DNA from: Mustelus asterias
Lineage: Eukaryota
Reading direction: 5' to 3'
Length of the DNA stretch: 64,000 nt
Assembly: GCF_964213995.1 (NCBI RefSeq)
Contig: NC_135808.1
Location: forward strand, 24,552,001 to 24,616,000
Positions 7,757-63,862 of this stretch are shown piece after piece. The position numbers and the translations under genes are program-made. Under the pieces are notes generated by a model. The model was given only the letters and a program-made list of their open reading frames with translations. It had not been told where the DNA came from and searched no databases. How positions within the stretch are numbered: position 1 is the first letter of the stretch; each line of letters starts with the position of its first letter.

Positions 7757-8751
7757 CGAAGATCCACTCTGTACCCCAAACATTCAGCGAAAGATCAGAA
7801 CCATCACAAAACACGATTGATGTTAAATCCTGTGGGAATGACAGACCCCAATGGCCAAATTCAGGGAAAACTCTGGGAATTCTGTCTTCCTTAAGGAAAT
7901 TGAGCCCTCCCCCCCGCACCCTCTCCCCTCCCCCCCAGCACCCTCCCCCCCGCACCCTCCCACCTCACCCCCACCCCCCGCACCCTCCCCCCCTCACTCC
8001 CCCGCACCCTCCCCCCCAGCACCCTCTCCCCCTCACTCACCGACTCTCACATCCCCCCTCATTCACCGACTCTCACTCCCCCCTCACTCACCGACTCTCA
8101 CTCCCCCCTCACTCACTGACTCTCACTCCCCCCTCGCTCACCGACTCTCAGTAATTTTTGTCCGTACTCCAGATATTTCCTCAGCCACTCGATACACTCC
8201 ACCTCCAGGTAACGTTTCCATCGCTGGTTAATGACCGTGCTGCCCTCCCACTTTTGTTTGATGATCTCTCCCCAAGGGACGGGGGTCACCCACACCAGAA
8301 GATCCTTATCAAAACTGATGAAATCTAGTCCGTCCCACCCGTACTGGTTGAATCCAGTCGTATTCCCATCATCACTCAGGTCACAGCCGGTCATCAGCTG
8401 GTGTATGTGGATCCCGGTGGATTAGAAAGATAACCTGCCAATCAGGGCCAGTCCCAATAAAAGCCGCACTCACCATGAACCCATCCAAACAGATCCGTTC
8501 CCACTGGAGGTCCAGCCACCACACACACACACACACACACACAGCCAATCTGGCCCAATCCAACTGGAGGCAAAGCCACCAAACACACACAATCAGATTC
8601 AGTCGACCAACAGACCTTACAGAGCTCATGCACAACCTCAGTTAATCAGCCCCCAGTCCCAGATCCTGATCCGCTCCCAGTTTCTCCCACTCTGACCCAG
8701 ACGCCCCGCATCCTGAGAGAGAGGCTGAGTGCTGGGAGAGTGAAGACTCAC

Positions 8752-10367
8752 AAAGAACAAAGAACAATACAGCACAGGAACAGGCCCTTCGACCCGCCAA
8801 GCCCGTGCCGTTCCCTGGTCCAAACTAGACCATTCTTTTGTATCCCTCCATTCCCACTCCGTTCATATGGCTGTCTAGATAAGTCTTAAACGTTCCCCAG
8901 TGTGTCCGCCTCCACCACCTTGCCTGGCAGCGCATTCCAGGCCCCCGCCACCCTCTGTGTAAAATATGTCCTTCTGATATCTGTGTTAAACCTCCCCCCC
9001 CGCCTTCACCTTGAACCTATGACCCCTCGTGAACGTCACCACCGACCTGGGGAAAACCTTCCCACCGTTCACCCTATCTATGCCTTTCATAATTTTATAC
9101 ACCTCTATTAAGTCTCCCCTCATCCTCCATCTTTCCAGGGAGAACAACCCCAGTTTACCCAATCTCTCCTCATAACTAAGCCCCTCCATACCAGGCAACA
9201 TCCTGGTAAACCTCCTCTGTACTCTCTCCAAAGTCCCCACGTCCTTCTGGTAGTGTGGCGACCAGAACTGGACGCAGTATTCCAAATGCGGCCGAACCAA
9301 CGTTCTATACATCTGCAACATCAGACCCCAACTTTTATACTCTATGCCCCATCCTATAAAGGCAAGCATGCCATATGCCTTCTTCACCACCTTCTTCACC
9401 TGTGACGTCACCTTCAAGGATCTGTGGACTTGCACACCCAGGTCCCTCTGCGTATCTACACCCTTTATGGTTCTGCCATTTATTATATAGCTCCTCCCTA
9501 CATTATTTCTACCAAAATGCATCTCTTCGCATTTATCAGGATTGAACTCCATCTGCCATCTCTTTGCCCAAATTTCCAGCCTATCTATATCCTTCTGTAG
9601 CTTCTGACAATGCTCCTCACTATCTGCAAGTCCTGCCAATTTTGTGTCGTCCACAAACTTACTGATCACCCCAGTTACACCTTCTTCCAGATCGTTTATA
9701 TGAATCACAAACAGCAGAGGTCCCCATACAGAGCCCTGCGGAACACCACTAGTCACAGCCGGAAAAAGACCCTTCCACTACCACCCTCTGTCTTCTGTGA
9801 CCAAGCCAGTTCTCCACCCATCTAGCCACCGCCCCCTTTATCCCATGAGATCCCACCTTTTTCACCCGCCTACCATGAGGGACTTTGTCAAACGCTTTAC
9901 CAAAGTCCATATAGACCACATCCACGGCCCTTCCCTCGTCAACCATTCTGGTCACTTCTTCCAAAAACTCCACCAGGTTAGTGAGGCATGACCTCCCTCT
10001 CACAAAACCATGCTGACTATCGTTAATGAGTTTATTCCTTTCTAAATGCGCATACATCCTATCTCTAAGAATCTTCTCCAACAACTTCCCCACCACGGAC
10101 GTCAAGCTCACCGGCCTATAATTATCCGGGTTATCCTTCCTACCCTTCTTAAATAATGGGACCACATTAGCTATCCTCCAATCCTCTGGGACCTCACCTG
10201 CGTCCAGTGACGAGACAAAGATTTGCGTCAGAGGCCCAGCGATTTCATCTCTTGTCTCCCTGAGCAGCCTTGGATAGATTCCATCAGGCCCTGGGGATTT
10301 GTCAGTCTTTATATTCTCTAACAAACCTAACACTTTCTCCCTTGTAATGGAGATTTTCTCCAACGGT
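8752..10367 (-). mobile_element. Young 5'-truncated CR1-clade LINE (RT domain + 3' UTR) in intron 2 of copy A
   Basis: KSPGPDG, YRPVSLTS, YMDFGKAFDKV, GVPQGSV, KFVDDTKL and PHLEYCVQFW motifs; (TTCTTTG)n tail; 4-bp flanking duplication GTGA. Confidence 0.93.
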
Positions 10368-10688
10368 TCACCTCCTGACTGGTTGGTTGGTTCGATACAT
10401 GAGGGTCTGAATATTATCTTTGAGACATCGTGCCCCCTCCTGTGTGAGCTTCTTCTTCTGTTCCCAGGACTCAAGCCCCTCACTCTCCACCATCCACTGC
10501 TCCCGGGGGATCAGCTCCCTCCGATCGCTGTCGTACACAACAAACGGGACACCGTCCACATAACCGACAGCCACAAACTCCGGGAAACCTGGAATTGGAG
10601 TCATTCCCGTGAGGAAACACCGGAGAGAGTGAGACCCTGAAATATGGAGAGAAAGAATTCAGGATAGACACCCTAAAAACACCAACAC

Positions 10689-10692
<4 letters not shown>

Positions 10693-10752
<60 letters not shown>
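10693..10752. repeat. (CA)n microsatellite
   Basis: About 30 perfect CA units. Confidence 0.95.
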
Positions 10753-10756
<4 letters not shown>

Positions 10757-11388
10757 ATCAGGGCATGAACCCCAAAACACTGATTCCAAACTGAGAGCAA
10801 GACCTCCACCCATGCCCCTGTACCCAGCCTGGCATTGCCCCTCTCACACCCCATCACTCACTGACCCAAGGTTAATGCCCCAGTGCCCAGCCTGGCACTG
10901 CCCCTCTCACACCCCATCACTCACTGACCCAGGGTTAATGCCCCAGTACCCAGCCTGGCATTGCCCCTCTCACACCCCATCACTCACTGACCCAGGGTTA
11001 ATGCCCCAGTACCCAGCCTGGCATTGCCCCTCTCACACCCCATCACTCACTGACCCAGGGTTAATGCCCCAGTACCCAGCCTGGCATTGCCCCTCTCACA
11101 CCCCATCACTCACCTGCAGACACCTCTCCACACAGAAGGACCAGCTCTATCAGTCCAATCATTGCTGCTTCCCTCATGTTGAGAGAAACATTTGGAGGAA
11201 ACTCTTTTTCAAAGAAAGGCCATTTTCTCAACTCACTCCTTCTGTCTTTTCCTGTTTACACTGAGCCTCAATCTGATTGGACCCGAAATAGGACTGGACC
11301 AATCAGAATAAAGAGATTCAGTGAGTCATCAGTCTCCGGCAGAATAGACACAAACAGGTTGAGAAACTGCCTCAATGTTGAGAACTGT

Positions 11389-30100: not shown

Positions 30101-33100
30101 AAGGTACAGACAATGTGAGTGGAGAGAGGGTTAAGCACAGGTTAAAGAGATGTGTATTGTCTCCAGCCAGGACAGTTAGTGAGATTTTGCAAGCCCAGGC
30201 AAGTCGTGGGGGTCACAGATAGTGTGACATGAACCCAAAGTCCTGGTTGAGGCTGTCCTCATATGTGAGGAACTTGGCTATCAGTTTTTGCTCAGCGATT
30301 CTGCGTTGTCATGTGTTGTGAAGGCCGCCTTGGAGAACGCTTACTCGAAGATCGGAGGCTGAATGCCCGTGACTGCTGAAGTGTTCCCCAACAGGAAGAG
30401 AATACTCCTGCCTGGTGATTCTCGAGTGGTGTTCATTCATCTGTTATCGTACCGTCTGCATGGTCTCCCCAATGTACAATGTCTCGAGACATCCTTTCCT
30501 GCAATGTATCAGGTAGACAACGTTGGCCGAGTTGCAAGTGTATGTACCGCGTACCTGGTGGATGATGTTCTCACGTGAGATGATGGCATCCGTGTCGATG
30601 ATCCGGCACATCTTGCAGAGATTGCTGTGGCAGGGTTGTGTGGTGTCGTGGTCACTGTTCTCCTGAAGGCTGGGTAGTTTGCTGCGGACAATGGTCTGTT
30701 TGAGGTTGTGCAGTTGTTTGAAGGCAACTGAGCAGACCCTGTGTATATGGAGGGCCTGTCTGTAGGGGATGGCTTCTTTAACGTGTTTAGGGTGGAAGCT
30801 GGGGAAGTGGAGCATCGTGAGGTTATCCGTGGGCTTGCGGTACAGTGAAGTGCTGAGGTGACCGTCCTTGATGGAGATGCGTGTGTCCAAGAGTGCAAGC
30901 AATTCTGGAGAGAAGTCCATGGTGAGTCTGATGGTGGGATAGAACTTGTTGATGACATCATATCGTTGTTTCAGTGACTGTTCGCCATGAGTCCAAAGGA
31001 AGAAAATGTCATCGATGTATTTAGTGTATAGCGTTGGTTGAAGGTCCTGAGCATTCCACGATGCTCCACTTCTCCAGCTTCCACCCTAAACACGTTAAAG
31101 CAGCCATCCCCTCTGGACAAGCCCTCCGTATTCACAGGATCTGCTCAGATGAGGAGGATCGCAACAGACACCTCCAGACGCTGAAAGATGCCCTCATAAG
31201 GATAGGATATGGTGCTCGACTAATTGATCGACAGTTCCGATGCGCCACAGCGAAAAACCGCACCGACCTCCTCAGAAGACAAACACGGGACACGGCGGAC
31301 AAAGTATCCTTCGTCGTCCAGTACTTCCCCGGAGTGGAGAAGCTACGACATCTTCTCCGGAGCCTTCAACATGTCATCGATGAAGACGAACATCTTGCCA
31401 AGGCCATCCCCACACCCCCACTTCTTGCCTTCAAACAACCACACAACCTCAAACAGACCATTGTCCGCATCAAACTACCCAGCCTTCAGGAGAACAGTGA
31501 CCACGACACCACACAACCCTGCCACAGCACCTCTGCAAGATGCGGATGCCATCATCTCACGTGAGAACACCATCCACCAGGTACACGGTACATACACTTT
31601 CAACTCGGCCAATGTTGTCTACCTGATACGTTGCAGGAAAGGATGTCCCGAGGCATGGTACATTGGGGAAACCATGCAGACACTGCGACAACAGATGAAT
31701 GAACACCGCTCGACAATCACCAGGCAAGAGTGTTCTCTTCCTGTTGGGGAACACTTCAGCAGTCACGGGCATTCTGCCTCTGATATTCGGGTAAGCGTTC
31801 TCCAAGGCGGCCTTCACGACACACGACAACGCAGAATTGCTGAGCACAGACTGATAGCCAAGTTCCGCACACATGAGGACGGCCTCAACCGGGACCTTGG
31901 GTTCATGTCACACTATCTGTGAGCCCCACGACTTGCCTGGGCTTGCAAAATCTCATTAACTGTCCTGGCTGGAGACAATACACATCCCTTTAACCTGTGC
32001 TTAACACTCTCTCCACTCAAATTGTCTGTACCTTTAAGATTTGATTACCTGTAAAGACTCGCATTTCAACCATTATTTTGTAAATTGAGTTTCTGTCTTT
32101 ATATGCCCTGTTTGTGAACAGAACTCCCACTCACCTGGCGAAGGAGCAGTGCTCTGAAAGCAAGTGGCTTCTGCTACCAAATAAACCTGTTGGACTTTAA
32201 CCTGGTGTTGTGAGACTTCTTACTGTGTTTACCCCAGTCCAACACCGGCATCTCCACATCATGACTACCGTAATATCCCATGATACACTGTATTATACTG
32301 TGATATCCCAGGTTACTCTGGGCCTTGTCATTCTGTAGTTTCCCAGGACTCAATGGGGCATGTTTCATATCAAATCCTCGACGTACAATTAATTTGCACT
32401 AATGGCCATTGTATATTATGCATGGAAAATTAATATTTATTTCCCTCTCTCTGTATCTGGGCTGACAGCTCAGCACTGACCCTCCCCTCCTGTGATCCTG
32501 GTCTGAGGCTGGGTCCTCTCTAACAGTGAGAAACAGTCTTACCGTAAATCACCACCAGTGTCTCCTTCACCCCGCTGTGTTCCACCCGACAGGAATACTC
32601 GGCCTGGTCCTCTGGATCAAACTCGACCCATTTCCGGATCTGGTAGGTGCTGTCGGGATTGGGTAAGATCCCACTGGACAGAGTCTCATCAATCACCACT
32701 CCGTCTCTCCACAGATTCACCTCGATGGGTTGAGGGTAAAACCCGGTGACGGCACAGGACAGCCGGGTAGAATCACCCAGACGGGTAAAGGACACGACGG
32801 GGGCAACTGAGAGAGAAAGAAAGAGGAGTCAGTACAGGAACCTCGAGATAGAGAGTCCCGGCATCACCCCCTTCACCGACTCTCACCCCCCCCTCACTCA
32901 CCGATTCTCACACCCCCCCTCACTCACCGACTCTCACTCCCCCCTCACTCACCGACTCTCACTCCCCCCTCACTCACCGACTCTCACTCCCCCCTCACTC
33001 ACCGACTCTCACTCCCCCCTCACTCACCGACTCTCACTCCCCCTCACTCACCGACTCTCACTCCCCCCTCACTCACCGACTCTCCCTCCCCCTCACTCAC

Positions 33101-36100
33101 CGACTCTCACTCCCCCCTCACTCACCGACTCTCACTCCCCCCTCACTCAGCGACTCTCACTCCCCCCTCACTCACCGACTCTCCCTCCCCCTCACTCACC
33201 GACTCTCCCTCCCCCTCACTCACCGACTCTCACTCCCTCCTCACTCACCGACTCTCAGTAGTTTTTGTCCATATTTCAGATATTTCCTCAGCCATTCGAT
33301 ACACTCCCCCTCCAGGTAATGTTTAAATCGCCTTTTGACGATGACATCCTGATCCCAGATGTTTTTGATGCTCTCCCCCCAGGGGACCGGAGTCACCCAC
33401 ACCATGTGATCCTTGTCGAAGCTGATAAAATCTTGTCCATTCCACGCGTACTGGTTGAATCCACTTGTGGTCCCATCATCGCTCAGTTCACAGCCAGTCA
33501 TCATCTGGAAGACATGGATCCCTGTGGATCAGAAAAAACAAACAGCCAATCAGTGCCAGTCCCAATGGGAGATCCCACCTCCACAGCCAATCATAGCCAG
33601 TCCCACTGATTGGCCCCACCCTCTGTAGAAACAGCGAATCAAATCCAGCTACACTGAGAGGCGCTTCCCACTCGATAGTAGACTGCCAATCAGAGCCAGT
33701 TACACAGAGCGGGCCCATGTCCGACATGCACATCCAATCAGAGCCAGTCTCACTTGGACATAATCCCTCCACACACACACACACACACAGCCAATCGCAT
33801 TTACTGTCACATCTCCAATCGCAGCCAATCAGCCTCTGGCTCCCAGCTCCTGATCCACTCTGGGTTTCTCTTCATTACAAGCTGGACGCCGAGAGCCAGG
33901 TCTGACAAAGTGTCATCCAGACCTGAAAGGTTAGCTCTGTTCTCTCTCCACAGATGCTGTCAGACCTGCTGAGGTTTTCCAGCATTTTCTGTTTTGGATT
34001 CAGATTCCAGCATCCGCAGTATTCTGCTTTTATATATGGGGCAGAGTGAGGACTCACCTCCTGTCTGGTTGGTCCGGGACATGAGGGTCGGAATACTAGT
34101 TTTGAAATGCATCTCCCCCTCCCGTACGAGCATCATCTTCTGCTCCCAAAACTCAGACCCATCGCCCTCCACCATCCACCGCTCCGGGTGAATCACCTCC
34201 TTCCGATCACTGTCATATGTCACAAACTGGATATCGTCCACATAACCGACAACCACAAACTCCGGGAAACCCGGGATCGGAGTCATTCCCGTGAGGAAAT
34301 ACCGGAGAGAGTGAGAGCCTGAAATATAGAGAAAGAGAGAGACATCAGGGTGTGAACCCCAAAACACCAACACCCAGAGAGAGAGAGACATCAGGGTGTG
34401 AACCCCAACATACCAACACCCAGAGAGTGAGAGACATCAGGGTGTGAACCCAAAACACCAACACCCAGAGAGAGAGACATCAGGGTGTGAACCCCAAAAC
34501 CCAACACCCAGAGAGAGAGAGAGAGACATCAGGGTGTGAACCCCAAAACACCAACACCCAGAGAGAGAGAGAGAGACATCAGGGTGTGAACCCCAAAACA
34601 CCAACACCCAGAGAGAAAGAGAGAGACATCAGGGTGTGAACACCAGAACCAGAGCGTTGTGCCCCATTGACCTGGTAAAATCCACCTCACTGATATTTGT
34701 GTCAAAATTGGAGAACTCTTCAACAATCTGGTGAAGCAACAGTCTGACAGAGTTATACTCACTGTGACACACGATGTGAAAGGTCGCAACCACCCTCCCC
34801 ATCCCTGGTTATGGCCTATCTCACTGGCAGGGTGAACCCGGGGATGACCTGTCTCAGTGGCAGGCTGTTTCCAGGGATGACCTGTCTCACTGGCAGCGTG
34901 TATCCGGGGATGACCTGTCTCACTGGCAGCGTGTATCCGGGAATGATCTGTCTCACTGGCAGGGTGTATCCGGGGATGACCTGTCTCACTGGCAGGGTGG
35001 ATCTGGGTGTGACCTGTCTCACTGACATGGTGTTTCCGGGGATGACCTGTCAAAGTGGCAGGGTGGATCTGGGTGTGAGCTGTCTCACTGGCAGGGTGTA
35101 TCCGGGAATGACCTGTCAAAGTGGCAGGGTGGATCTGGGTGTGAGCTGTCTCACTGGCAGGGTGTATCCGGGGATGACCTGTCTCACTGGCAGGGTGGAT
35201 CTGGGTGTGAGCTGTCTCACTGGCAGTGTGTATCCGGGGATGACCTGTCTCACTGGCAGGGTGGATCTGGGTATGACCTGTCTCACTGGCAGGGTGGACC
35301 CACCACATGCTTTGGCACAGTAATCTTCACTGGGAATGGCGTTCCCCTTAGAAACGTTTCTGGACCCGATGAGGTCTCAGGTATTCAGTCAAACTTCGGC
35401 AGCAAAACCTCTATTTGATTGTTACCGAAAATCCTCCCCCAGCTGAGGAATCAGTATCTCTCCATGTTCAACACTCCTTGGAAAAAACACTAAGGGAGAT
35501 GAGGACTCAGACTCTACTCTGGGTGGGGCTTGAATGTCCTTCCCTCAGAGTGACTCAGGAATATAACTGCAGACTGAGCAGTCCGAGTCCGGAATGATAC
35601 ATCTGTGACTTAGCCTGTGGCCTTTCCTGTGAAAATAAGGAGTGTGATGCCTCTGTAGTTGTCGCAGGCTCCTCGATTAGTCTTCTCTGCAGCATATTTT
35701 CTGTAAACAGTGTGATGGAACTCAGTCTATTTTCCAGCAGAGGGAGCTGCTCATAAAGGTGTGGGAATTGATGGCTCTTTTCCTGCTGGGATTCCATTCT
35801 TGCCAAGAGCCTTTCCGTTCACTAAGCAGCCTAACCAGCCTTCTCAAGCTCAAGTGGTGAAATCAAGTGAACACTATTCCTTGAGCTGTCAACAAAAGTG
35901 AGGTTAGCACTGCTGCCTCACAGCGCCAGGGACCCAGTTTCAATTCTGGCCTTGGGTGACTGTCCCTGTGGAGTTTGCACATTCTCTCCGTGGGTGTGGT
36001 TAAGATATTCTGTCAGAGGGTTGGTGGAGACTCAATGGGTTCCTTCTGCACTGTCGGGATTCTCTGATTCTTCCTCTAACTCATTCACCACAGGAAACTG

Positions 36101-39822: not shown

Positions 39823-42800
39823 ATGAGGGAAGCAGCAATGATTGGACTGATAGAGCTGGTCCTTCTGTGTGGAGAGGTGTCTGCAGGTGAGTGATGGGGT
39901 GTGAGAGGGGCAATGCCAGGCTGGGTACTGGAGCATTAACCGTGGGTCAGTGAGTGATGGGGTGTGAGAGGGGCAATGCCAGGCTTGGTACTGGGGCATT
40001 AACCCTGGGTCAGTGAGTGATGGGGTGTGAGAGGGGCAATGCCAGGCTGGGTACTGGGGCATTAACCCTGGGTCAGTGAGTGATGGGGTGTGAGAGGGGC
40101 AATGCCAGACTGGGTACTGGGGGATTATCCCTGGGTCAGTGAGTGATGGGGTGTGAGAGGGGCAATGCCAGGCTGGGTACTGGGTTTCTTAAAGGAGGGA
40201 AACTGGGATGTGAGGAAAATGAGAGCAGGGACGTGGGATTGGAGATCGAGGAGCGAGACAGAGAAAGGGAGAGGTTGAAGCATTACAGGAACAGGAGGGG
40301 AATAATCTAAACTCCATTTTCTGCATCCCCACAAAAATCCATCTCAATTTTGAAAGCTGCAATTGATCCACAACAGCTGCAGCTTCTTGCGGGAAAGAGG
40401 ATTTCAGATTTCCACAACCATTTTGGTGAGGAGGTTCCTGGCTGAAGACAGCAGGCAGCAACCAGGAAAGAGAGAGTGAGTGTAGATGAATAGCAGAGAC
40501 TGGTTAAAGGCTTCAGTAAGAAGTCTCACAACACCACGTTAAAGTCCAACAGGTTTATTTGGTAGCAAATACCATAAGCTTTCGGAGCGCTGCTCCTTCA
40601 TCAGATGGAGTGGAAATCTGCTCTCAAACAGTGCAAACAGACAGAATCAAGTTGCAGAATACTGATTAGAATGCGAATACTACAGCCAGCCAGGTCTTAA
40701 ATGTACAGACAATGTGGGTGGACGGAACATTAAACACAGGTTAAAGAGATGTGTATTGTCTCCAAACAGAACAGCTCGTGAAATTTTGCAAGTCCAGGAG
40801 GCAAGCTGTGGGGGTTACTGATAATGTGACATAAATCCAACATCCCGGTTTAGGCCGTCCTCATGTGTGCGGAACTTGGCTATCAGTTTCTGCTCAGCGA
40901 CTCTGCGCTGTCGTGTGTTGTGAAGGCCGCCTTGGAGAATGCTTACCTGAAGATCCAAGGCTGAATGCCCATGACTGCTGAAGTGCTCCCCCACAGGAAG
41001 AGAACAGTCTTGCCTGGTGATTGTCGAGCGGTGTTCATTCATCCGTTGTCGTAGCGTCTGCATGGTTTCCCCAATGTACCATGCCTCGGGACACCCTTTC
41101 CTGCAGCGTATCAGGTAGACAACGTTGGCCGAGTTGCAAGAGTAGGTGCCGTGTATCTGGTAGATGGTGTTCTCACGTGAGATGATGGCATCCGTGTCGA
41201 TGATCCGGCACGTCTTGCAGAGGTTGCTGTGGCAGGGTTGTGTGGTGTCGTGGCCATTGTTCTCCTGAAGGCTGGGTAGTTTGCTGCGGACAATGGTCTG
41301 TTTGAGGTTGCGTGGTTGTTTGAAGGCAAGAAGTGGGGGTGTGGGGATGGCCTTGGCGAGATGTTCGTCTTCATCAATGACATGTTGAAGGCTCCGGAGG
41401 CTCCACTCCATCTGACGAAGGGGCAGCGCTCCGAAAGCTTATGGTATTTGCTACCAGATAAACCTGTTGGACTTTAACCTGGTGTTGTGAGACTTCTTAC
41501 TGTGTTCACCCCAGTCCAACGCCGGCATCTCCACATAAAGGCTTCAGCAACAGTGCACGATTAGAGAGAGAGAGAGCAGCAGAAGTATAGTGTCATAGAA
41601 TCCCTGCAGTGCAAAAGAAGGCTATTTAGCCCATCGAATCTGCACTGAGAACAATCCCACCTGGGCCCTATTCCCGTAACCCCATGTATTCATCCTACTA
41701 ATCATCTTGACACTAAGGGGCAATTTAGCATGGCCCATCAACCGAACCCGCACATCTTTTGAATGTGGGAAGAAACCGGAGAACCTGGAGGAAACCTACG
41801 GGGAGAACGTACAAATTCCACGCAGACAGTCACCCGAGGCCGGAATTGAACCCGGGTCCCTGGTGCTATGAGGCAGCAGTGCTAACCACTCTGCCACCGT
41901 GCTACCCATATAATCAGACCCAGTAAAAGACTCCCAGCAGCAATGCATGAATAGCGAGAGAGTGTGTGTAAAGGAATAGCACAGGCCTAGTTAGGGACTC
42001 CAGCGCAATGCACAATTGGAGAGTGATGGGGAGGGAGGAGAAATCAGACCTGGCTGGAGACTCCAGCATTTCTACAATTCCTTAGCTGATGTCCTGAGGA
42101 AGATTCTGGATGACTGGAGTCTTTTCAGCCTAAGTGACTTCAACAATGTGTTGGGACAGACAGTGATCATGGCCATTGTGCCTCGGTCATCACGGTGTGA
42201 GCAAGATCATCGATAATTATATTTGACCGAATGCATGGGACTTCTATGCTGAGGACTCTCAGGGGAACTGTATTGTGGAAGCACATCACTGCACCAATAC
42301 CTCTGGTGGGTCTGTTGTGCGAGTCAGACAGTTATATCCAGCTTCTAAGCACCTTCTGGAGCTTTGCCATCTGAATGAACTCTCCATCACCAACACTTAC
42401 CCCCAGGGCAAACATTGCCTCAAAGTATCGTGGCATCGCTCAAGGTGTAACCCTGGCACCAACTAGACCTGCGTAATCAAGAGGAGACACAATCTGCCCA
42501 GCTTTCTCCACACCCACACCAAGCACAGAGCAGATTGTGATAGTGCCCACTGTCCTGTCCGTCGCAGTGTGAAACTGCATCCCTGAATAATTCACAGTCC
42601 CAAACACCATGGCCTGTCGCGTGTTAATGGGTTCGTACCCTGATGTCCCTCTCTGTGTGGGTGTTGATGGTTAGGGGTTCAAATCCTGATATCTGTGTGT
42701 CAGCGTTTTTAGGGTGCATATCCTGAATTTCTCTCCCTCTCTGTTTTTCAGGCTCTCACTCTCTGCGGTATTTCCTCTCGGGAATGACCCCGGTCCCCGG

Positions 42801-45800
42801 TTTCCCAGAGTTTGTAGCTGTCGGTTATGTGGACGATGTCCAGTTTGTTGTGTACGACAGTGATCGGAGGGAACTAATCCCCCGGGAGCAGTGGATGGTG
42901 GAGAGCGAGGGGCTTGAGTCCTGGGAGCGGAAGAAGATGCTTGTACAGGAGCAGGAACGGTATTCCAAAGCCGATATTCCGCTCTTCATGTCTCGGGCCA
43001 ACCAGTCAGGAGGTGAGTGCTCACTCTCCCACAACTCTGGGATCAAGTTGGTCAATGTGGCTCCTCCCAGTGTAGTTGGCATTGATTGGCTGTGTGTGTG
43101 GTGCTCCCAAGTGACACTGTCTCTGATTGGTTGTTTGTGTTTCTGATCCACAGGGATCCATGTCTACCAGACGATGACTGGCTGTGACCTGAGGGATGAT
43201 GGGACCACGAGTGGATTCAACCAGTTTGGGTGGGACGGAAAAGATTTTATCAGCTTTGACAAGGATCACATGGTGTGGGTGACCCCGATCACATGGGGAG
43301 AGATCATCAAAAACAATTTGGACAGGGACATAGCCAACAGCAAGGGATGGAAAAGTTACCTAGAGGGAGAGTGTATCGAGTGGCTGAAGAAATATCTGGA
43401 GTATGGACAGAGAGAACTGAGAGTTGGTGAGTTGGTAAGTGAGAGATGAGATGCCCGGGACTCTCTATCTCAAGGTTCCTGTACTGACTCCTCTTTCTTT
43501 CTCTCTCAGTTGCCCCCGTCGTGTCCTTTACCCGCCTGGGTGATTCTAACCAGCTGTCCTGTGCCGTCACCGGGTTTTACCCTCAAGCCATCGAGGTGAA
43601 TCTGTGGAGAGACGGAGTGGTGATTGATGAGACTCTGTCCAGTGGGATCTTACCCAATCACGACAGCACCTACCAGATCCGGAAATGGGTAGAGTTTGAT
43701 CCAGAGGACCAGGCCGAGTATTCCTGTCGGGTGGAACACAGCGGGATGAAGGAGACACTGGTGGTGATTTACGGTAAGACTGTTTCTCACTGTTAGAGAG
43801 GACACAGCCTCAGGCCAGGATCACAAGAGGGAGGGTCAGTGCTGAGCCTGAGACCCAGGATACAGAGAATGGGAAATAAATATTAATCTTCAATACTTTA
43901 TTTATCATGGCGCTACCTTTAGAGGACAGTAATTGTGTGTCCAGGGATTTAATGTGAAATGTGCCCCTATTATTTGGCTACTAATTCAAACTCTTTGCAA
44001 ACATTTCAGTTTAGTCGGACAAAGGACAGAAGCCGAGTCTATTCCACTTAATAATCTATTTAACACTTTAAGTACCAAACTCAAACTTACAACAGTTGCA
44101 ACATTTTAACTCTTTTTGTGGACATTAATTCTTTAACTGAACATTAATTCTCATTCCTTAACTGCAAACAGATATTCTAATCCTTTAACTGGAAATAGAT
44201 ATGTCCTGGTTTAGAGTAAAATGTCTGTTCCCGATGTAGAACTTTCCTCAGCGTCTTTCTCTGAAGATGTTCTGCAGGGTACACTTCTTGCGATGGTTGA
44301 TCTCTGGAGTTATTGCTGGAAACAAAGGGCTGACGTGTGCCTTTACCCCCAAAACTGTTCTCACTTTCCAGAAAATTCTGTAACACCCAGCCAATGGTGT
44401 AACTGGGAACTGATCATGTTGCTCGACCAAGCCAATGAATTACTTGTAACCGATTCCACAATGCTCACTCAAGCCTGCATGCAGGACACATAGCTTATCC
44501 TCTGTCGGTGCCATCAGGTCTAACTCAAAGTAAACAACTTCCCATATTTGGTCAGTACAGGAACTAGAACAAGGAACAGGCCCTTCGGCCCTCCAAGCCT
44601 GCACTGACCATGCTGCCCAACTTAACTAAAACCCCCTACCCTTCCGGGGACCATATCCCTCTATTCCCAAAGAACAGTGTCAGGTCACAGTTCACCGGGC
44701 AGACCACATCAAGAACAGCTTTACGACCTGCATCTGTTTTTAAATATAAGTTGACCAAAAATCTCAGCATGCTTAACCCTCTGCCAGAATCACACTTAGC
44801 GCCATTATTGTTGTTAAAGAACAACTGCAATAATGATTTTATCTGTCTGCACCCCATTGTATCCTGGGATATTACAGGTGAAAGGGCACAGAGTATCCTG
44901 GGATATTACGGTGCAACAGATTCCAGTGTATCCTGGGAAATTATAGTACGTCACACTGCAGTGTATCCTGGGAAATTACAGGAGGGGTAGGGCCCAGAGT
45001 ATCCTGGGACATTACAGTGCAACACAATCCAGTCGATCCTGGTGTATTACAGTGCGCCAGGATCCAGTGACTCGTGAGATATTTCAGGAGGGATGGGGCT
45101 TGGTGTATCCTGGAATATTACAGCATGACAGGGCCCAGTGCATCCTGGGAAATAACAGGAAGCACAGGAACCATTGTATCGATGGATATTACAGTAAGAC
45201 AGGGCTGTGTATCATGAGCTATTATAGTTGGTCAGGGTGCAGTATATCTGGGATATTACAGCCTGACAGGACATGGAGTATCCTGGGATGTTACAGTATG
45301 ACAGGATGCAGTGTATCCTGGGATATTACTGGATGACGGGACTCAATGTCTGTTGGAATTTTAGAGAAGGGACAGGGCCTGGTGTGCTTGGGATTTCAGA
45401 GGAGGGATAGGACCTGGTGTATTGGGATATTGCAGGATGGCAGGGCCCAGTGTCTGCTGTGATATTACAACCTGAGAGGACCCAGTGTGCCCTGGGATGT
45501 TATATTAGGACAAGGCCCAGTGTATCCTGGGATATTACAGTAGGATAGGACCCAGTGCATCCTGGGAGTTTACTTCAGTCAGCTTCAGATCAGAGTTCAG
45601 AAAAATAACTCCTTCTATTGGAGAGAATTCATGAAAATCTAGAAATCAAAAAATATAACAATGAATAGTCAGCATGGATATTGAAATGGAAAATCTTGTT
45701 TTTCTCCACTGAGTGGATTTTTTGAGGATGTAACAGAGGGAGGAGACAATGTAATAGATATAATTTAATATGATTTTTCAAATGTAATCGATAACATAGC

Positions 45801-58828: not shown

Positions 58829-59234
58829 ATGAGGGAAGCAGCAATGATTGGACTGATAGAGCTGGTCCTTCTGTGTGGAGAGGTGTCTGCAGGTGAGTGA
58901 TGGGGTGTGAGAGGGGCAATGCCAGGCTGGGTACTGGGGCATTAACCCTGGGTCAGTGAGTGATGGGGTGTGAGAGGGGCAAAGCCAGGCTGGGTACTGG
59001 GGCATTAACCCTGGGTCAGTGAGTGATGGGGTGTGAGAGGGGCAATGCCAGGCTGGGTACTGGGGCATTAACCCTGGGTCAGTGAGTGATGGGGTGTGAG
59101 AGGGGCAATGCCAGGCTGGGTACTGGGGCATTAACCCTGGGTCACTGAGTGATGGGGTGTGAGAGGGGCAATGTCAGGCTGGGTGGAGGCCTTGCTCTCG
59201 GTTTGGAATCAGTGTTTTGGGGTTCATGCCCTGA

Positions 59235-59265
<31 letters not shown>

Positions 59266-62200
59266 TGGTGTTTTTAGGGTGTCTATCCTGAATTCTCTCT
59301 CTCTCTATTCCAGGCTCTCACTCTCTCCGGTATTTCTTCACGGGAATGACTCCGATCCCGGGTTTCCCGGAGTTTGTGGCTGTCGGTTATGTGGACGGTG
59401 TCCAGTTTGTTTTGTACGACAGCGATCGGAGGGAGCTGATCCCCCGGGAGCAGTGGATGGTGGAGAGCGAGGGTCCGGCAGCCTGGGAGCGGAAGAAGGA
59501 TCTCGCACAGGAGCAGGAGATGTACTCCAAACTTACTATTCCACTGCTCATGACCCGCACCAACCAGACAGGAGGTGAGTGCTCACTCTCCCAGCACCCT
59601 GGATCCAGGTGGGAATGAGGAGAAACCCAGAGTGGATCAGGAACCGGGAGCCAGAGGCTGATTGGCTGCGATTGGAGATGTGACAAGAAATGTGATTGGC
59701 TGTGAATGTGTGGAGGGATTGTTTCCAGGGAGGTCTGGCTCTGATTGGCTGTGTGTGAGGGGGGGGGGGGGCAGAGTACTTGATGTTGATTGGCTGGTAG
59801 GATGAGATCGCCCAGTGAGACTAGTTCTGATTGGCTGTGCAGGTGGGATCGCCCATTGGGACTGTCTCTGATTGGCTGTTTGTGTTTCTGATCCTTAGGG
59901 ATCCATGTTTACCAGCTGATGACTGGCTGTGACCTGAGGGATGATGGGACCACGAGTGGATTCAACCAAAGGGGATGGGACGGAGATGATTTTATCAGCT
60001 TCGACAAGGATCACATGGTGTGGGTGACCCCGGTGCCCTGGGGAGAGATCACCAAAAACAAGTTGGACAGGAGCACAGTCGACATTCAGCGATGGAAACA
60101 TTACCTGGAGGTGGAGTGTATCGAGTGGCTGAGGAAATACCTGGAGTACGGACAGAAAGAATTGAGAGTCTGTGAGTGAGGGGGGAGTGAGAGTTGGTGA
60201 GTGAGGGGGGGGAGTGAGAGTCGGTGAGTGAGGGGTGAGTGAAAGTCGGTGAGTGAGGGGGGGAGTGAGAGGCGGTGAGTGAGGGGGGAGTGAGAGTCGG
60301 TGAGTGAGGGGGGAGTGAGAGTCGGTGAGGGAGGGAGGGAGCGAGAGTCGGTGAGTGAGGGGGGAGTGAGAGTCGGTGAGTGAGGGGAGTGAGAGTCGGT
60401 GAGTGAGGGGGGAGTGAGAGTCAGTGAGTGAGGGGGGAGTGAGAGTCGGTGAGTGAGGGGGGAGTGAGAGTCGGTGAGTGAGGGGGGAGTGAGAGTCGGT
60501 GAGTGAGGGGGGAGTGAGAGTCGGTGAGTGAGAGGGGAGTGAGAGTCGGTGAGTGAGAGGGGAGTGAGAGTCGGTGAGTGAGGGGGGAGTGAGAGTCGGT
60601 GAGTGAGGGGGGAGTGAGAGTCGGTGAGTGAGGGGGGAGTGAGAGTCGGTGAGTGAGGGGGGAGTGAGAGTCGGGGAGTGAGAGTCGGTGAGTGAGGGGG
60701 GAGTGAGAGTCGGTGAGTGAGGGGGGAGTGAGAGTCGGTGAGTGAGGGGGGGTGAGAGTCGGTGAGTGAGGGGGGAGTGAGAGTCGGTGAGTGAGGGAGG
60801 AGTGAGAGTCGGGGAGTGAGAGTCGGTGAGTGAGGGGGGAGTGAGAGTCGGTGAGTGAGGGGGGAGTGAGAGTCGGTGAGTGAGGGGAGTGAGAGTCGGT
60901 GAGTGAGGGGGGAGTGAGAGTCGGTGAGTGAGGGGGGGTGAGAGTCGGTGAGTGAGGGGGGAGTGAGAGTCGGTGAGTGAGGGGGGAGTGAGAGTCGGTG
61001 AGTGAGGGGGGAGTGAGAGTCGGTGAGTGAGGGGGGAGTGAGAGTCGGTGAGTGAGAGTCGGTGAGTGAGAGTCGGTGAGTGAGGGGGGAGTGAGAGTCG
61101 GTGAGTGAGGGGAGTGAGAGTCGGTGAGTGAGGGGGGAGTGAGAGTCGGTGAGTGGGGGGGGGTGAGAGTCGGTGAGTGAGGGGGGAGTGAGAGTCGGTG
61201 AGTGAGGGGGAGTGAGAGTCGGTGAAGGGGGTGATGCCGGGACTCTTATCTCGAGGTTCCTGTACTGACTCCTCTTTCTTTCTCTCTCAGTTGCCCCCGT
61301 CGTGTCCTTTACCCGTCTGGGTGATTCTAACCGGCTGTCCTGTGCCGTCACCGGGTTTTACCCTCAAGCCATCGAGGTGAATGTGTGGAGAAACGGAGTG
61401 ATGATTGATGAGACTCTGTCCAGTGGGATCTTACCCAATCACGACAGCTCCTACCAGATCCGGAAATGGGTCGAGTTTGATCCAGAGGACCAGGCCGAGT
61501 ATTCCTGTCGGGTGGAACACAGCGGGATGAAGGAGACACTGGTGGTGATTTACGGTAAGACTGTTTCTCACTGTTAGAGAGGACCCAGCCTCAGACCAGG
61601 ATCACAGGAGGGAGGGTCAGTGCTGAGCTGTCAACCCAGGATATATAGAGAGGGAAATAAATCTTATTCAATGCGTTATATATCATGGTTCCACAGTGCA
61701 ACATGATACAGCGTATCATTGGATATTGGGATCGCACTGGACCTGGTGTAACATTGGACACAAGAGTAGGTCTGGGCCTGGGGTATTCTGGGATATTACA
61801 GTATGGTGGGGCCCAGTGAACCCTGGGATATTGCAGTAGTACAGACCGTGGTATATCCTGAGATACTCTCGTAGGACACATCCCAGTGAACCCTGGGATA
61901 TTGCAGTAGTACAGACCGTGGTGTATCCTGAGATATTCTCGTAGGACAAAAACCAGTGTATCCTGGGATGTTGCAGTGTGTCAGGGTCTGGTGTATCCTG
62001 GGATATTACAGGAGGTTGGGCACCGTGGAATATCAGAGGATGGAGAGAGCCTGGTGTATCCAAGAAACAATGCTTTTCACTGTGTACCAATACATGTGAC
62101 AATAATAAATCACATCAAATATTACAGTAGGACTGGACCCAGTGCATCCTGGAAGTTTACTTCAGTCAGATTAAGATCAGTATTCAGAGAAATAATGGAA

Positions 62201-63862
62201 TTCCTTCTATTGGAGACAATTCATGAAAATCTAGAATCAAATACTATAACAATGAATATTCAGCATGGATTTTGAAATGGAAAATCTTGTTTTACTCCAA
62301 TTAGTGGATTTTTTGAGGATGTAACAAAGGGAATAGACAATGGTAATGTAATAGATATAATATCATATAATTTTTTTAATGTAATAGAAAAGGGGGTTCG
62401 TGATGGACTGATTGACAAGGTGAAAGCATGTGGAGTTAGGGGATGAGTGACAGAATGGATCACTCACTGACTTTGGGACAGAAAGCAGAGAGTGTGAGTA
62501 AAGGGTGTTTCAGAGTTACAGAAAGTGTTCCACAAGGATCAGTGCTGGGATCACCGCTGTTCACAAGTTACACTCCATAACTTGGATATTGGAATCAAAA
62601 ATACCATTTCTTAATTTGCAGATAACATCAAATTGGGAGAATTATTTGATTTTGAGGAGAACTGGAATAAATTAATAGGACATGAATAAACTTGAACAAA
62701 TAGTTGGTAAATAAAGTTCAGCACAGTTAAACGTGAGGTATTTTTCAGTTAACGATGAATAGGGAGGGTTGAGGAACAAAGGGATCTTGATGTACAAATA
62801 CACCAATCAGTAAACATAGAGTTACAGGTTAGACAATAAACAAAATACAATCGAAAACCAGGTTTGATTTCTCGAGGAATAGAATTGTAAAGTAGTGATT
62901 TTATTGCTAAACCTGTATCAAACCTTGGTTAGACCACATTTAAAGACCGTGTGCAGTTCCGGTCACCATTTCATAAAAAGGATATAGAGTCAGGGGAGAG
63001 AGTGTAGAGAAGATTTACAGAGATGATTCCAGAAATGAGTGGGTGGACATCTCAGGAAAGGATTGACCGGCTGGGTCTCTGCTCTCGGGAAAACAGAAGG
63101 CTGAGGGTTGACCGAATCGAGGATTTAAAATTAGGAAAGTTTTTTTTATAGGCCAGACACATCGAGAGTGTTCCTCTTGTGGGAAGAGCATATCCAGTGG
63201 CCATCAATACAAGAAACCCAATGGGGAATTCATGAGAAACCTCTTCACCCAAAGAGTGATGAGAATGTGGAGCTCGCTGCCACAGGGAGTGGCTGAACTG
63301 AACAGTATAGTTTAAGGGGAGGATAGACAAGCAAATGAGGGAAAGGGGAATAGAGTTAAAATGGTTGAATTAGATGAGGAATGATGGGAGAAGGCTCAAG
63401 TGGAACATAAATACCAGTATCAACTAGATGGGCCGGAAGGCCATTTTCTATGTTGTATATCCTGTGTTTCCTGATTCACTTTCACTCTGATTCTCTCTCA
63501 CATTTCTCTTTCTTTCACTCTGATTCACTCTTTCATTCTGTCTCTCTGATCTTTCTCTGTCTCTCATTCTCTCTCTTCCTCACTCTTAGTTGCTCATCCT
63601 CTCTCTCATTCTCTCCCACTCGCTCACATTCTATTTCTCTCTGAGTCTCACTGTTCCCTCTCCCTGATTCACTCAGTCTCTCACATTCTGTCTCTCTGAT
63701 TCTCACTTTTTTCTCTCCCTGACTCACTCAGTCTCTCTGATTCTCTCTCTCTAACAGAACCAAAGTCTCGCTCCCAGGTTGCTGTTACTGTCGGGATTGT
63801 GGTCGGGGTCCTCGTGCTCATCGCTCTCATCATTGTGGCTGTCGTCATCTACAACAAGAAAG
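58829..63862 (+). CDS. MHC class I heavy chain (copy D), 3'-partial; join(58829-58892,59314-59574,59899-60171,61291-61554,63758-63862); cytoplasmic exons beyond the window
   Basis: Five exons of 64/261/273/264/105 nt, GT-AG, with an open frame through the TM exon. Confidence 0.9.
58893..59184 (+). repeat. 63-bp tandem repeat at the start of intron 1 (also 10812-11113, 36345-36456 and 39887-40183)
   Basis: Unit gtgagtgatggggtgtgagaggggcaatgccaggctgggtactggggcattaaccctgggtca. Confidence 0.95.
59314..59574 (+). CDS. Copy D exon 2 (alpha1)
   Basis: GSHSLRYFFTGMTPIPGFPEF...TRTNQTG. Confidence 0.92.
59899..60171 (+). CDS. Copy D exon 3 (alpha2)
   Basis: IHVYQLMTGCDLRDDG...ECIEWLRKYLEYGQKELRV. 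Confidence 0.92.
60163..61230 (+). repeat. About 25-bp G-rich minisatellite filling intron 3 of D (also 32870-33257 in B and 8030-8150 in A)
   Basis: Unit gagagtcggtgagtgaggggggagt. Confidence 0.95.
61291..61554 (+). CDS. Copy D exon 4 (alpha3, Ig C1)
   Basis: LSCAVTGFYPQAIEVNVWRNG...YSCRVEHSG. Confidence 0.92.
63758..63862 (+). CDS. Copy D exon 5 (TM)
   Basis: EPKSRSQVAVTVGIVVGVLVLIALIIVAVVIYNKK. Confidence 0.88.

Follow-up and report, generated by a model that had tools for sequence, protein, structure and literature searches.

Why an MHC class I gene of Mustelus asterias should repeat one of its own splice donors dozens of times, and whether the repeats influence how the gene is spliced, are the questions raised by the locus described here. 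It lies in a 64-kb stretch of DNA (the window: 64,000 nt, positions 24,552,001 to 24,616,000 of NC_135808.1) that contains four MHC class I genes, referred to as A, B, C and D. A preliminary description of this sequence had proposed that the repeat count adjusts the ratio of full-length product to transcripts lost to nonsense-mediated decay (NMD) or encoding a secreted alpha1-alpha2 product. Coordinates are window positions unless a contig is named, and a bar within a motif marks the exon-intron boundary.

Class I genes of the window

Five exons of gene D were mapped in a spliced frame on the forward strand: exon 1 (leader, 58829..58892), exon 2 (alpha1, 59314..59574), exon 3 (alpha2, 59899..60171), exon 4 (alpha3, 61291..61554) and exon 5 (transmembrane, 63758..63862). 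Spliced together they form one open frame through exon 5, the cytoplasmic exons lying beyond the mapping. The alpha1 and alpha2 exons (C8:24611313 and 24611898) scored 67.5 and 82.7 bits against a Pfam MHC_I cut-off of 28.3, covering positions 1-91 and 91-179 of the model, respectively (E 4.8e-20 for alpha2), while exons 4 and 5 are what we take, from their translation and familiar motifs, to be an Ig C1-type alpha3 domain and a transmembrane segment. The alpha2 exon is 273 nt long and ends in T, the last base being G in most paralogs. Intron 3 spans 1119 nt and closes with a unique tail (61234..61290, forward strand) comprising a pyrimidine tract and the acceptor; the same tail is present in genes with no array.

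The other three genes differ in what follows alpha2. Gene A (minus strand) carries a junction array of 4.9 copies at 8028..8150 with no alpha3 exon behind it, and genes of its type (window 8142-11177; L032 and L034) are broken, with an insertion between alpha1 and alpha2, a CG in place of the alpha2 acceptor, and a missing alpha3. The long insertion is presumably LINE-like. Gene B, also on the minus strand, has an array of 15.5 copies (32873..33257) in an intron of 442 nt, and its first donor reads TCG|GTGAGT. Gene C (forward strand) has an 83-nt intron 3 (43427..43509) with no array and with an 8-nt donor duplication. This duplication (43427-43442) places TTG|GTAAGT directly after TTG|GTGAGT and is absent from the array-less genes L020 and L022; splicing at the second of these sites would alter the reading frame.

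A 63-bp array of 4.6 copies occupies the start of gene D intron 1 (58893..59184, forward strand). It begins at intron position +1, so that the intron side of the donor is repeated and the exon end is not. Arrays of this unit, likewise starting at donor +1, are found in intron 1 of gene C (39887-40184) and gene A (10812-11113); these genes thereby possess a further kind of donor-anchored repeat, whose pseudo-donors are weaker.

A junction minisatellite in intron 3

Tandem Repeats Finder (TRF) placed a 25-bp minisatellite of 42.5 copies (90% matches) at 60163..61225 on the forward strand of gene D. Its unit, TGAGAGTCG|GTGAGTGAGGGGGGAG, comprises the last 9 bases of the alpha2 exon and the first 16 bases of intron 3, and the array begins at 60163, 9 bases inside alpha2 (exon end 60171), such that the first unit spans the exon-intron boundary and 41 copies of the donor follow downstream. 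Cutting the array by unit yielded 45 pieces, of which 22 were perfect. The 17-nt core of the unit matched 64 times in the window, compared with 0.02 matches expected from shuffling. The last unit (61213..61227, forward strand) is degenerate, reading TCG|GTGAAG, and is common to the array-bearing paralogs. The gene D array is an exon-intron junction minisatellite of the type described in human F7 and CBS and in the amphioxus 'mirage' repeats. The preliminary description had already identified the unit as the end of the alpha2 exon plus its donor, and its rough copy numbers for genes A, B and D agree with the TRF values; it had also noted the 83-nt intron of gene C, which lacks an array.

Distribution within the paralog cluster

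At least 40 paralogs of the gene D alpha2 exon were found, every one of them on contig C8 in the interval from 21.6 to 24.7 Mb. The cluster set consisted of 51 genes with an alpha2 exon, plus an orphan array accompanied by alpha3 alone; statistics were calculated on 49 cluster genes, leaving out L062 and L063 (found later), the orphan L043, and L036 (a second entry for a locus already included). The host genes make up a class I cluster of many copies, located on the same contig as the other class I hits, an arrangement resembling the multicopy nonclassical class I (MHC-Ib) clusters, UBA and UEA, reported from elasmobranchs (PMC10751288). The portion of that source available here makes no mention of a junction array, and no earlier description of the array was found in the literature searched, most subscription papers lying outside that search.

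Among the 49 cluster genes the number of units ranged from 0 to 113. The exact two-unit pattern occurred 203 times on the forward and 154 times on the reverse strand of the whole genome, and all 357 of these 357 matches fell inside cluster loci, which rules out a dispersed genome-wide repeat for exact dimers. The DNA-like run X19 covered the array to a very high depth with sequence of 80% likeness, indicating that similar G-rich repeats exist. An array of the gene D unit was absent from the seven class I hits outside the cluster. Two loci further along the contig, L058 and L059 (C8 41.6 and 42.4 Mb), carry a different, GC-rich 23-bp minisatellite from +11 of the intron after alpha2, and repeats have therefore arisen behind the alpha2 donor more than once.

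Array length is unstable between paralogs. Within this one assembly, copies with identical alpha2 exons had intron 3 lengths of 1119 and 1094 nt, 792 and 765 nt, 801, 801 and 1306 nt, and 5388, 5388 and 5911 nt. First donors varied as well, with exon ends of TCG in 29 of the 49 genes, TCT in 9, TTG in 5, CTG in 4, and CCG and TCA in one each. The TCT donor of gene D was found in two separate clades of the alpha1-alpha2 tree, suggesting conversion or repeated change.

Donor strength and the stop codon behind the first donor

Donors were scored by pairing positions -3 to +8 with the 5' end of this genome's own U1, a crude proxy that ignores U1 base modifications. By this measure the authentic donor of gene D alpha2 (donor 1, TCT|GTGAGT, 60169..60177, forward strand) scored -6.3 kcal/mol, compared with -10.0 for donor 2 (TTG|GTGAGT, 60194..60202, forward strand), which lies 25 nt downstream and would be the expected site of any leak, and -10.2 for the usual unit. 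All 41 downstream donors, which lie in unit register and read TCG|GTGAGT in 37 cases, were stronger than donor 1, and donor 1 was the weakest of the five donors of the gene, in agreement with the weakening noted in the preliminary description. The contig of the class I cluster also carries U1 snRNA genes, in two tandem arrays (C8 12.9-13.1 Mb and 18.8-18.9 Mb).

Reading past donor 1 leads, after two codons, to a TGA (60177..60179, forward strand), making donor 1 the sole alpha2 donor of gene D ahead of the stop. Twelve of the 41 later donors are in frame and all twelve lie behind this TGA; in-frame rescue by a later donor of gene D was thereby ruled out. The immediate stop, which the preliminary description had reported for genes B and D, was present in 43 of 48 paralogs, including the array-less L020 and L022, and in L056, L058 and L059, three of four outside-cluster class I genes with scored donors. 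It is a consequence of the bases GTGAGTGA in a phase-1 intron. The array as the origin of the stop was ruled out by its presence in the array-less and outside-cluster genes, and from this distribution in sequence the stop is older than the array.

The outside-cluster gene L056, in which no alpha3 exon was seen within the sequence examined, reads CCT|GTGAGTGA at this junction; its donor has T at -1 and a U1 score equal to that of gene D donor 1, and it carries no array. Another class I locus, L057 (C8 35.07 Mb), seemingly has a GC rather than a GT donor after alpha2, with an alpha3-like exon downstream.

Splice junctions in run contigs

Evidence for splicing was sought in contigs from five of 22 sequencing runs (X1, X2, X3, X9 and X19), with organisms given in code and no run recorded as RNA. 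On gene C, X1 contigs joined across introns 2 and 3 with GT..AG ends, and X2, X3 and X9 contigs had an in-frame alpha2-alpha3 joint at the corresponding position, from which these four runs behave as RNA and were guessed to be such. X1 is near this genome, with 1 difference in 117 nt and 5 in 262.

The scaffold used for array-bearing genes was L010, a broken paralog with 4 units and a 171-nt intron. Contigs of X1, X2 and X3 skipped the whole 171-nt intron at depths of 566, 198 and 780, respectively, with a second X1 joint at 613, while the DNA-like X19 showed no such joint and covered the intron tail. Two of the three joints listed on L010 were at donor 1, and the remaining one was a 404-nt skip in X2 with no splice ends. 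No unit donor served as the start of any of these three joints, rare isoforms being liable to drop out of contigs. Furthermore, one loose end in X1 matched an exon end unique to L038 (gene B) and L039, each with 15 units in this assembly, and was joined straight to alpha3. Sister genes therefore likely join alpha2 to alpha3 at the first donor.

Contigs indicate presence rather than absence, NMD would deplete leak products, and the run contigs do not span arrays. No junction of the gene D type (TCT) was among the joints and loose ends listed for the run contigs. X1 did contain the alpha1 end of the D clade; its motif is also compatible with L007 and L008, two genes carrying the usual donor. Array bins on L010 were covered at depths of 20-348 in X1, 0-22 in X2 and 0-41 in X3, and one X1 contig in these bins continued into other sequence, the 12-nt core of which matched none of the 49 paralog loci. 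The statement that the first donor alone is used whatever the array length, which the preliminary description had set against its own proposal, thus agrees with the joints listed for sister genes, but gene D itself has no junction among them. Judging from its weak first donor, gene D may leak.

G-runs and polyadenylation signals

The array of gene D is G-rich, with a G4Hunter mean of 1.32 and 80% of windows at or above 1.2. The canonical G-quadruplex motif (four runs of G3+ with loops of 1-7 nt) had 0 matches in the array, and 11 were obtained with loops of up to 20 nt; a long-loop RNA G-quadruplex may form. None of the four types of poly(A) hexamer searched for was present in gene D intron 3, leaving a secreted alpha1-alpha2 mRNA with no obvious end.

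Mammalian G-runs act as enhancers when they lie downstream of a donor and as silencers when they lie in an exon, and those of TP53 sustain use of a weak donor despite a stronger cryptic one (PMC12062376). A role for the G6 runs of the array as intronic splicing enhancers is plausible, and by analogy the layout of the unit would, we infer, favour donor 1 as in TP53. This polarity step is weak, given that G triplets are dispensable in F7 (PMC1557585) and that G-run enhancers, or G-rich intron elements, are rare in fish introns, according to a source whose available part does not mention sharks (PMC3606033).

Origin, homogenisation and possible selection

The junction of array-less L020 (last 9 exon bases and first 16 intron bases) matched the unit at 21 of 25 bases, and introns with and without the array have the intron-3 tail in common. 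The degenerate end unit common to array-bearing genes points to a single origin. The array-less C type falls in an unresolved fork of both trees; it may be ancestral or may have lost its array, and rooting it as ancestral failed because both trees leave that fork unresolved.

Among 21 representatives, mean identity was 84% for alpha1, 76% for the intron-2 tail, 83% for alpha2, 95% for the intron-3 tail and 96% for alpha3, and synonymous distances were 0.18 and 0.25 for alpha1 and alpha2, compared with 0.07 for alpha3. The C type was as homogenised as the array genes at alpha3 (97.0% vs 95.8% identity) and likewise at the intron-3 tail; the start of intron 4 alone was more divergent in the C type (88.7% vs 96.9%).

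Array length did not distinguish intact from broken genes. Medians were 21 units in intact genes (n=32) and 29 in broken genes (n=17; p = 0.91, and p = 0.94 for 21 gene types), where L015 was scored as broken since its exon 2 lay outside the stretch, an open alpha1 match further upstream making the split probably 33/16, and where the alpha3 of L050 was only partly in view. Eleven genes scored as intact had at least 43 units, and all nine TCT-donor genes were intact in exons 2-4. The idea that long arrays kill genes was rejected, as the comparison of intact and broken genes gave no signal. Within the unit, 118 distinct variants were recorded from 26 representative genes. Donor position +1 varied 13 times and +2 16 times, compared with 1-18 times for other non-CpG positions, whereas the two CpG positions varied 24 and 20 times, mostly from C to T and G to A (a rough count with no formal test). 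This variation looks like mutation with CpG decay, with no clear removal or protection of decoy donors.

Known junction repeats

The closest parallel is the 37-bp VNTR in intron 7 of human F7, in which the first unit also spans the boundary, the donor is reiterated, G triplets are present, and only the most upstream donor is used (PMC1557585). Donor choice there was unchanged by 1 to 12 repeats, and stronger pseudo-sites offered no competition up to CV 91, while a perfect downstream site took 70-90% of splicing and mutation of donor 1 activated the second unit (PMC1557585). In contrast to the 5-9 units of F7, with identical donors in one gene, the shark array has 0-113 units in about 50 paralogs, in nine of which donor 1 is weaker than its copies. 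Junction minisatellites of the same anatomy in 6-16 (IFI6), CBS intron 13, lamin B2 and PDGF, as cited in PMC1557585, use the authentic donor alone or with the two nearest copies. These are single-copy human genes, and 6-16 and CBS leak to two proximal pseudo-sites, whereas no such leak is among the shark joints listed.

The 25-bp VNTR in human ABCA7 intron 18 is likewise anchored at the donor and has a wide range of lengths; retention of one unit, leading to a premature stop and NMD, is unaffected by VNTR size (PMC5954066). Its unit, by contrast, starts at GT with no exon bases, and its length lowers expression and raises skipping of exon 19 (PMC5954066), meaning that an effect of length is possible in principle. 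The amphioxus 'mirage' minisatellites resemble the shark array as tandem duplications of exon-intron boundaries with unstable length, a homogenised interior and divergent end units, but occur in cephalochordate genes, have units of 10-160 bp and affect both donor and acceptor sides; they are reported as harmless to splicing (PMC3087553).

Competing explanations

The interpretation that we consider probable is that the array is a near-neutral 25-bp junction minisatellite whose first donor is kept by the spliceosome whatever the array length, near-neutrality being likely because retention of the first donor is likely regardless of length. On this view the array is likely an ordinary repeat with counterparts in human genes, and not a switch. 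It would have arisen once at the junction by slippage or unequal exchange and then spread by gene duplication and conversion, with length changes as in any VNTR. As in human F7, the donor furthest upstream would prevail. The G6 run may assist it, since donor 1 has this run on its downstream side only, whereas each later donor also has one immediately upstream. Transcripts that occasionally used a later donor would contain the stop (positions +6 to +8) and be degraded by NMD, given the distant downstream position of the alpha3/transmembrane junction.

A rival reading concerns the nine TCT genes, in which a sizeable share of splicing could slip to donor 2 and be lost to NMD, making them lower expressers independently of array length and with no adaptive tuning. 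The gap in U1 pairing between donors 1 and 2 of gene D (-6.3 vs -10.0) is consistent with such leakage, as are activation of the second unit by donor 1 mutation in F7 (PMC1557585) and one-unit retention in ABCA7 (PMC5954066), and the D-type junction is missing among those listed even though a D-clade alpha1 end is present in X1. That alpha1 motif, however, matches L007 and L008 as well, with their usual donor, exons 2-4 are open in 9 of 9 TCT genes, the array-less L056 likewise has T at -1 of its donor, and no unit-retaining joint is among those listed for any run. We regard sizeable leakage as unlikely. The notion that G6 runs hold the weak donor of the TCT genes against dozens of stronger copies, with array length or purity setting the share of productive mRNA, appears decidedly doubtful.

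Tuning as set out in the preliminary description, with decoy donors, G6 enhancers or G-quadruplexes as the means by which repeat number would shift the balance of full-length class I chain against NMD or a secreted product of alpha1 and alpha2, draws on the spread of 0-113 units among paralogs, the high G4Hunter values, the length effects in ABCA7 (PMC5954066) and the rescue of a weak donor by G-runs in TP53 (PMC12062376). It is nevertheless judged very unlikely: donor 1 is used in the listed alpha2-alpha3 joints, no sign of selection was seen on the GT of the unit (118 variants) or on length, which does not separate intact from broken genes (49 genes), the stop predates the array and occurs in array-less genes, gene D intron 3 lacks both a poly(A) hexamer and a canonical short-loop G-quadruplex motif, and repeat number had no effect in F7 (PMC1557585). 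A further proposal, that the array is a recombination or conversion boundary parting the diverging alpha1-alpha2 exons from a homogenised alpha3 block, accords with the step in identity from 76-84% (alpha1 to alpha2) to 95-96% (intron-3 tail and alpha3) and with the TCT donor in two clades, as conversion would give. The array-less C type is homogenised to the same degree at alpha3 and the intron-3 tail, and the array is thus not needed for the pattern. The difference between alpha1-alpha2 and alpha3 is explained by selection that acts on the groove exons and opposes conversion, and a boundary role for the array is accordingly highly improbable.

Implications and further features of the cluster

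On present evidence the array adds one case to a repeat type already described, and in practice it calls for caution when the cluster is annotated or assembled. A modest use of the cluster lies in the study of 5' splice-site choice beyond mammals, for which it offers about fifty naturally varying paralogs with a near-identical acceptor and alpha3 that differ in array length (0-113 units) and first-donor strength. Were length to set productive output, nonclassical class I genes would possess a rapidly mutating control of expression, for which no support was obtained here; were the G6 runs to buffer the weak donor, with array length or purity setting the productive share, the cluster would offer a natural series, about fifty immune genes in number, with output dialled by a donor-bearing VNTR of 0-113 units.

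Several loci show additional rearrangements. The orphan L043 (C8 21.81 Mb) retains an array and alpha3, but the DNA preceding them is unrelated and alpha2 is lacking within about 14 kb; L028 has an insertion directly after donor 1. L031, L033, L035 and L037 have a common 1-nt frameshift in alpha3, with alpha1 and alpha2 exons intact.
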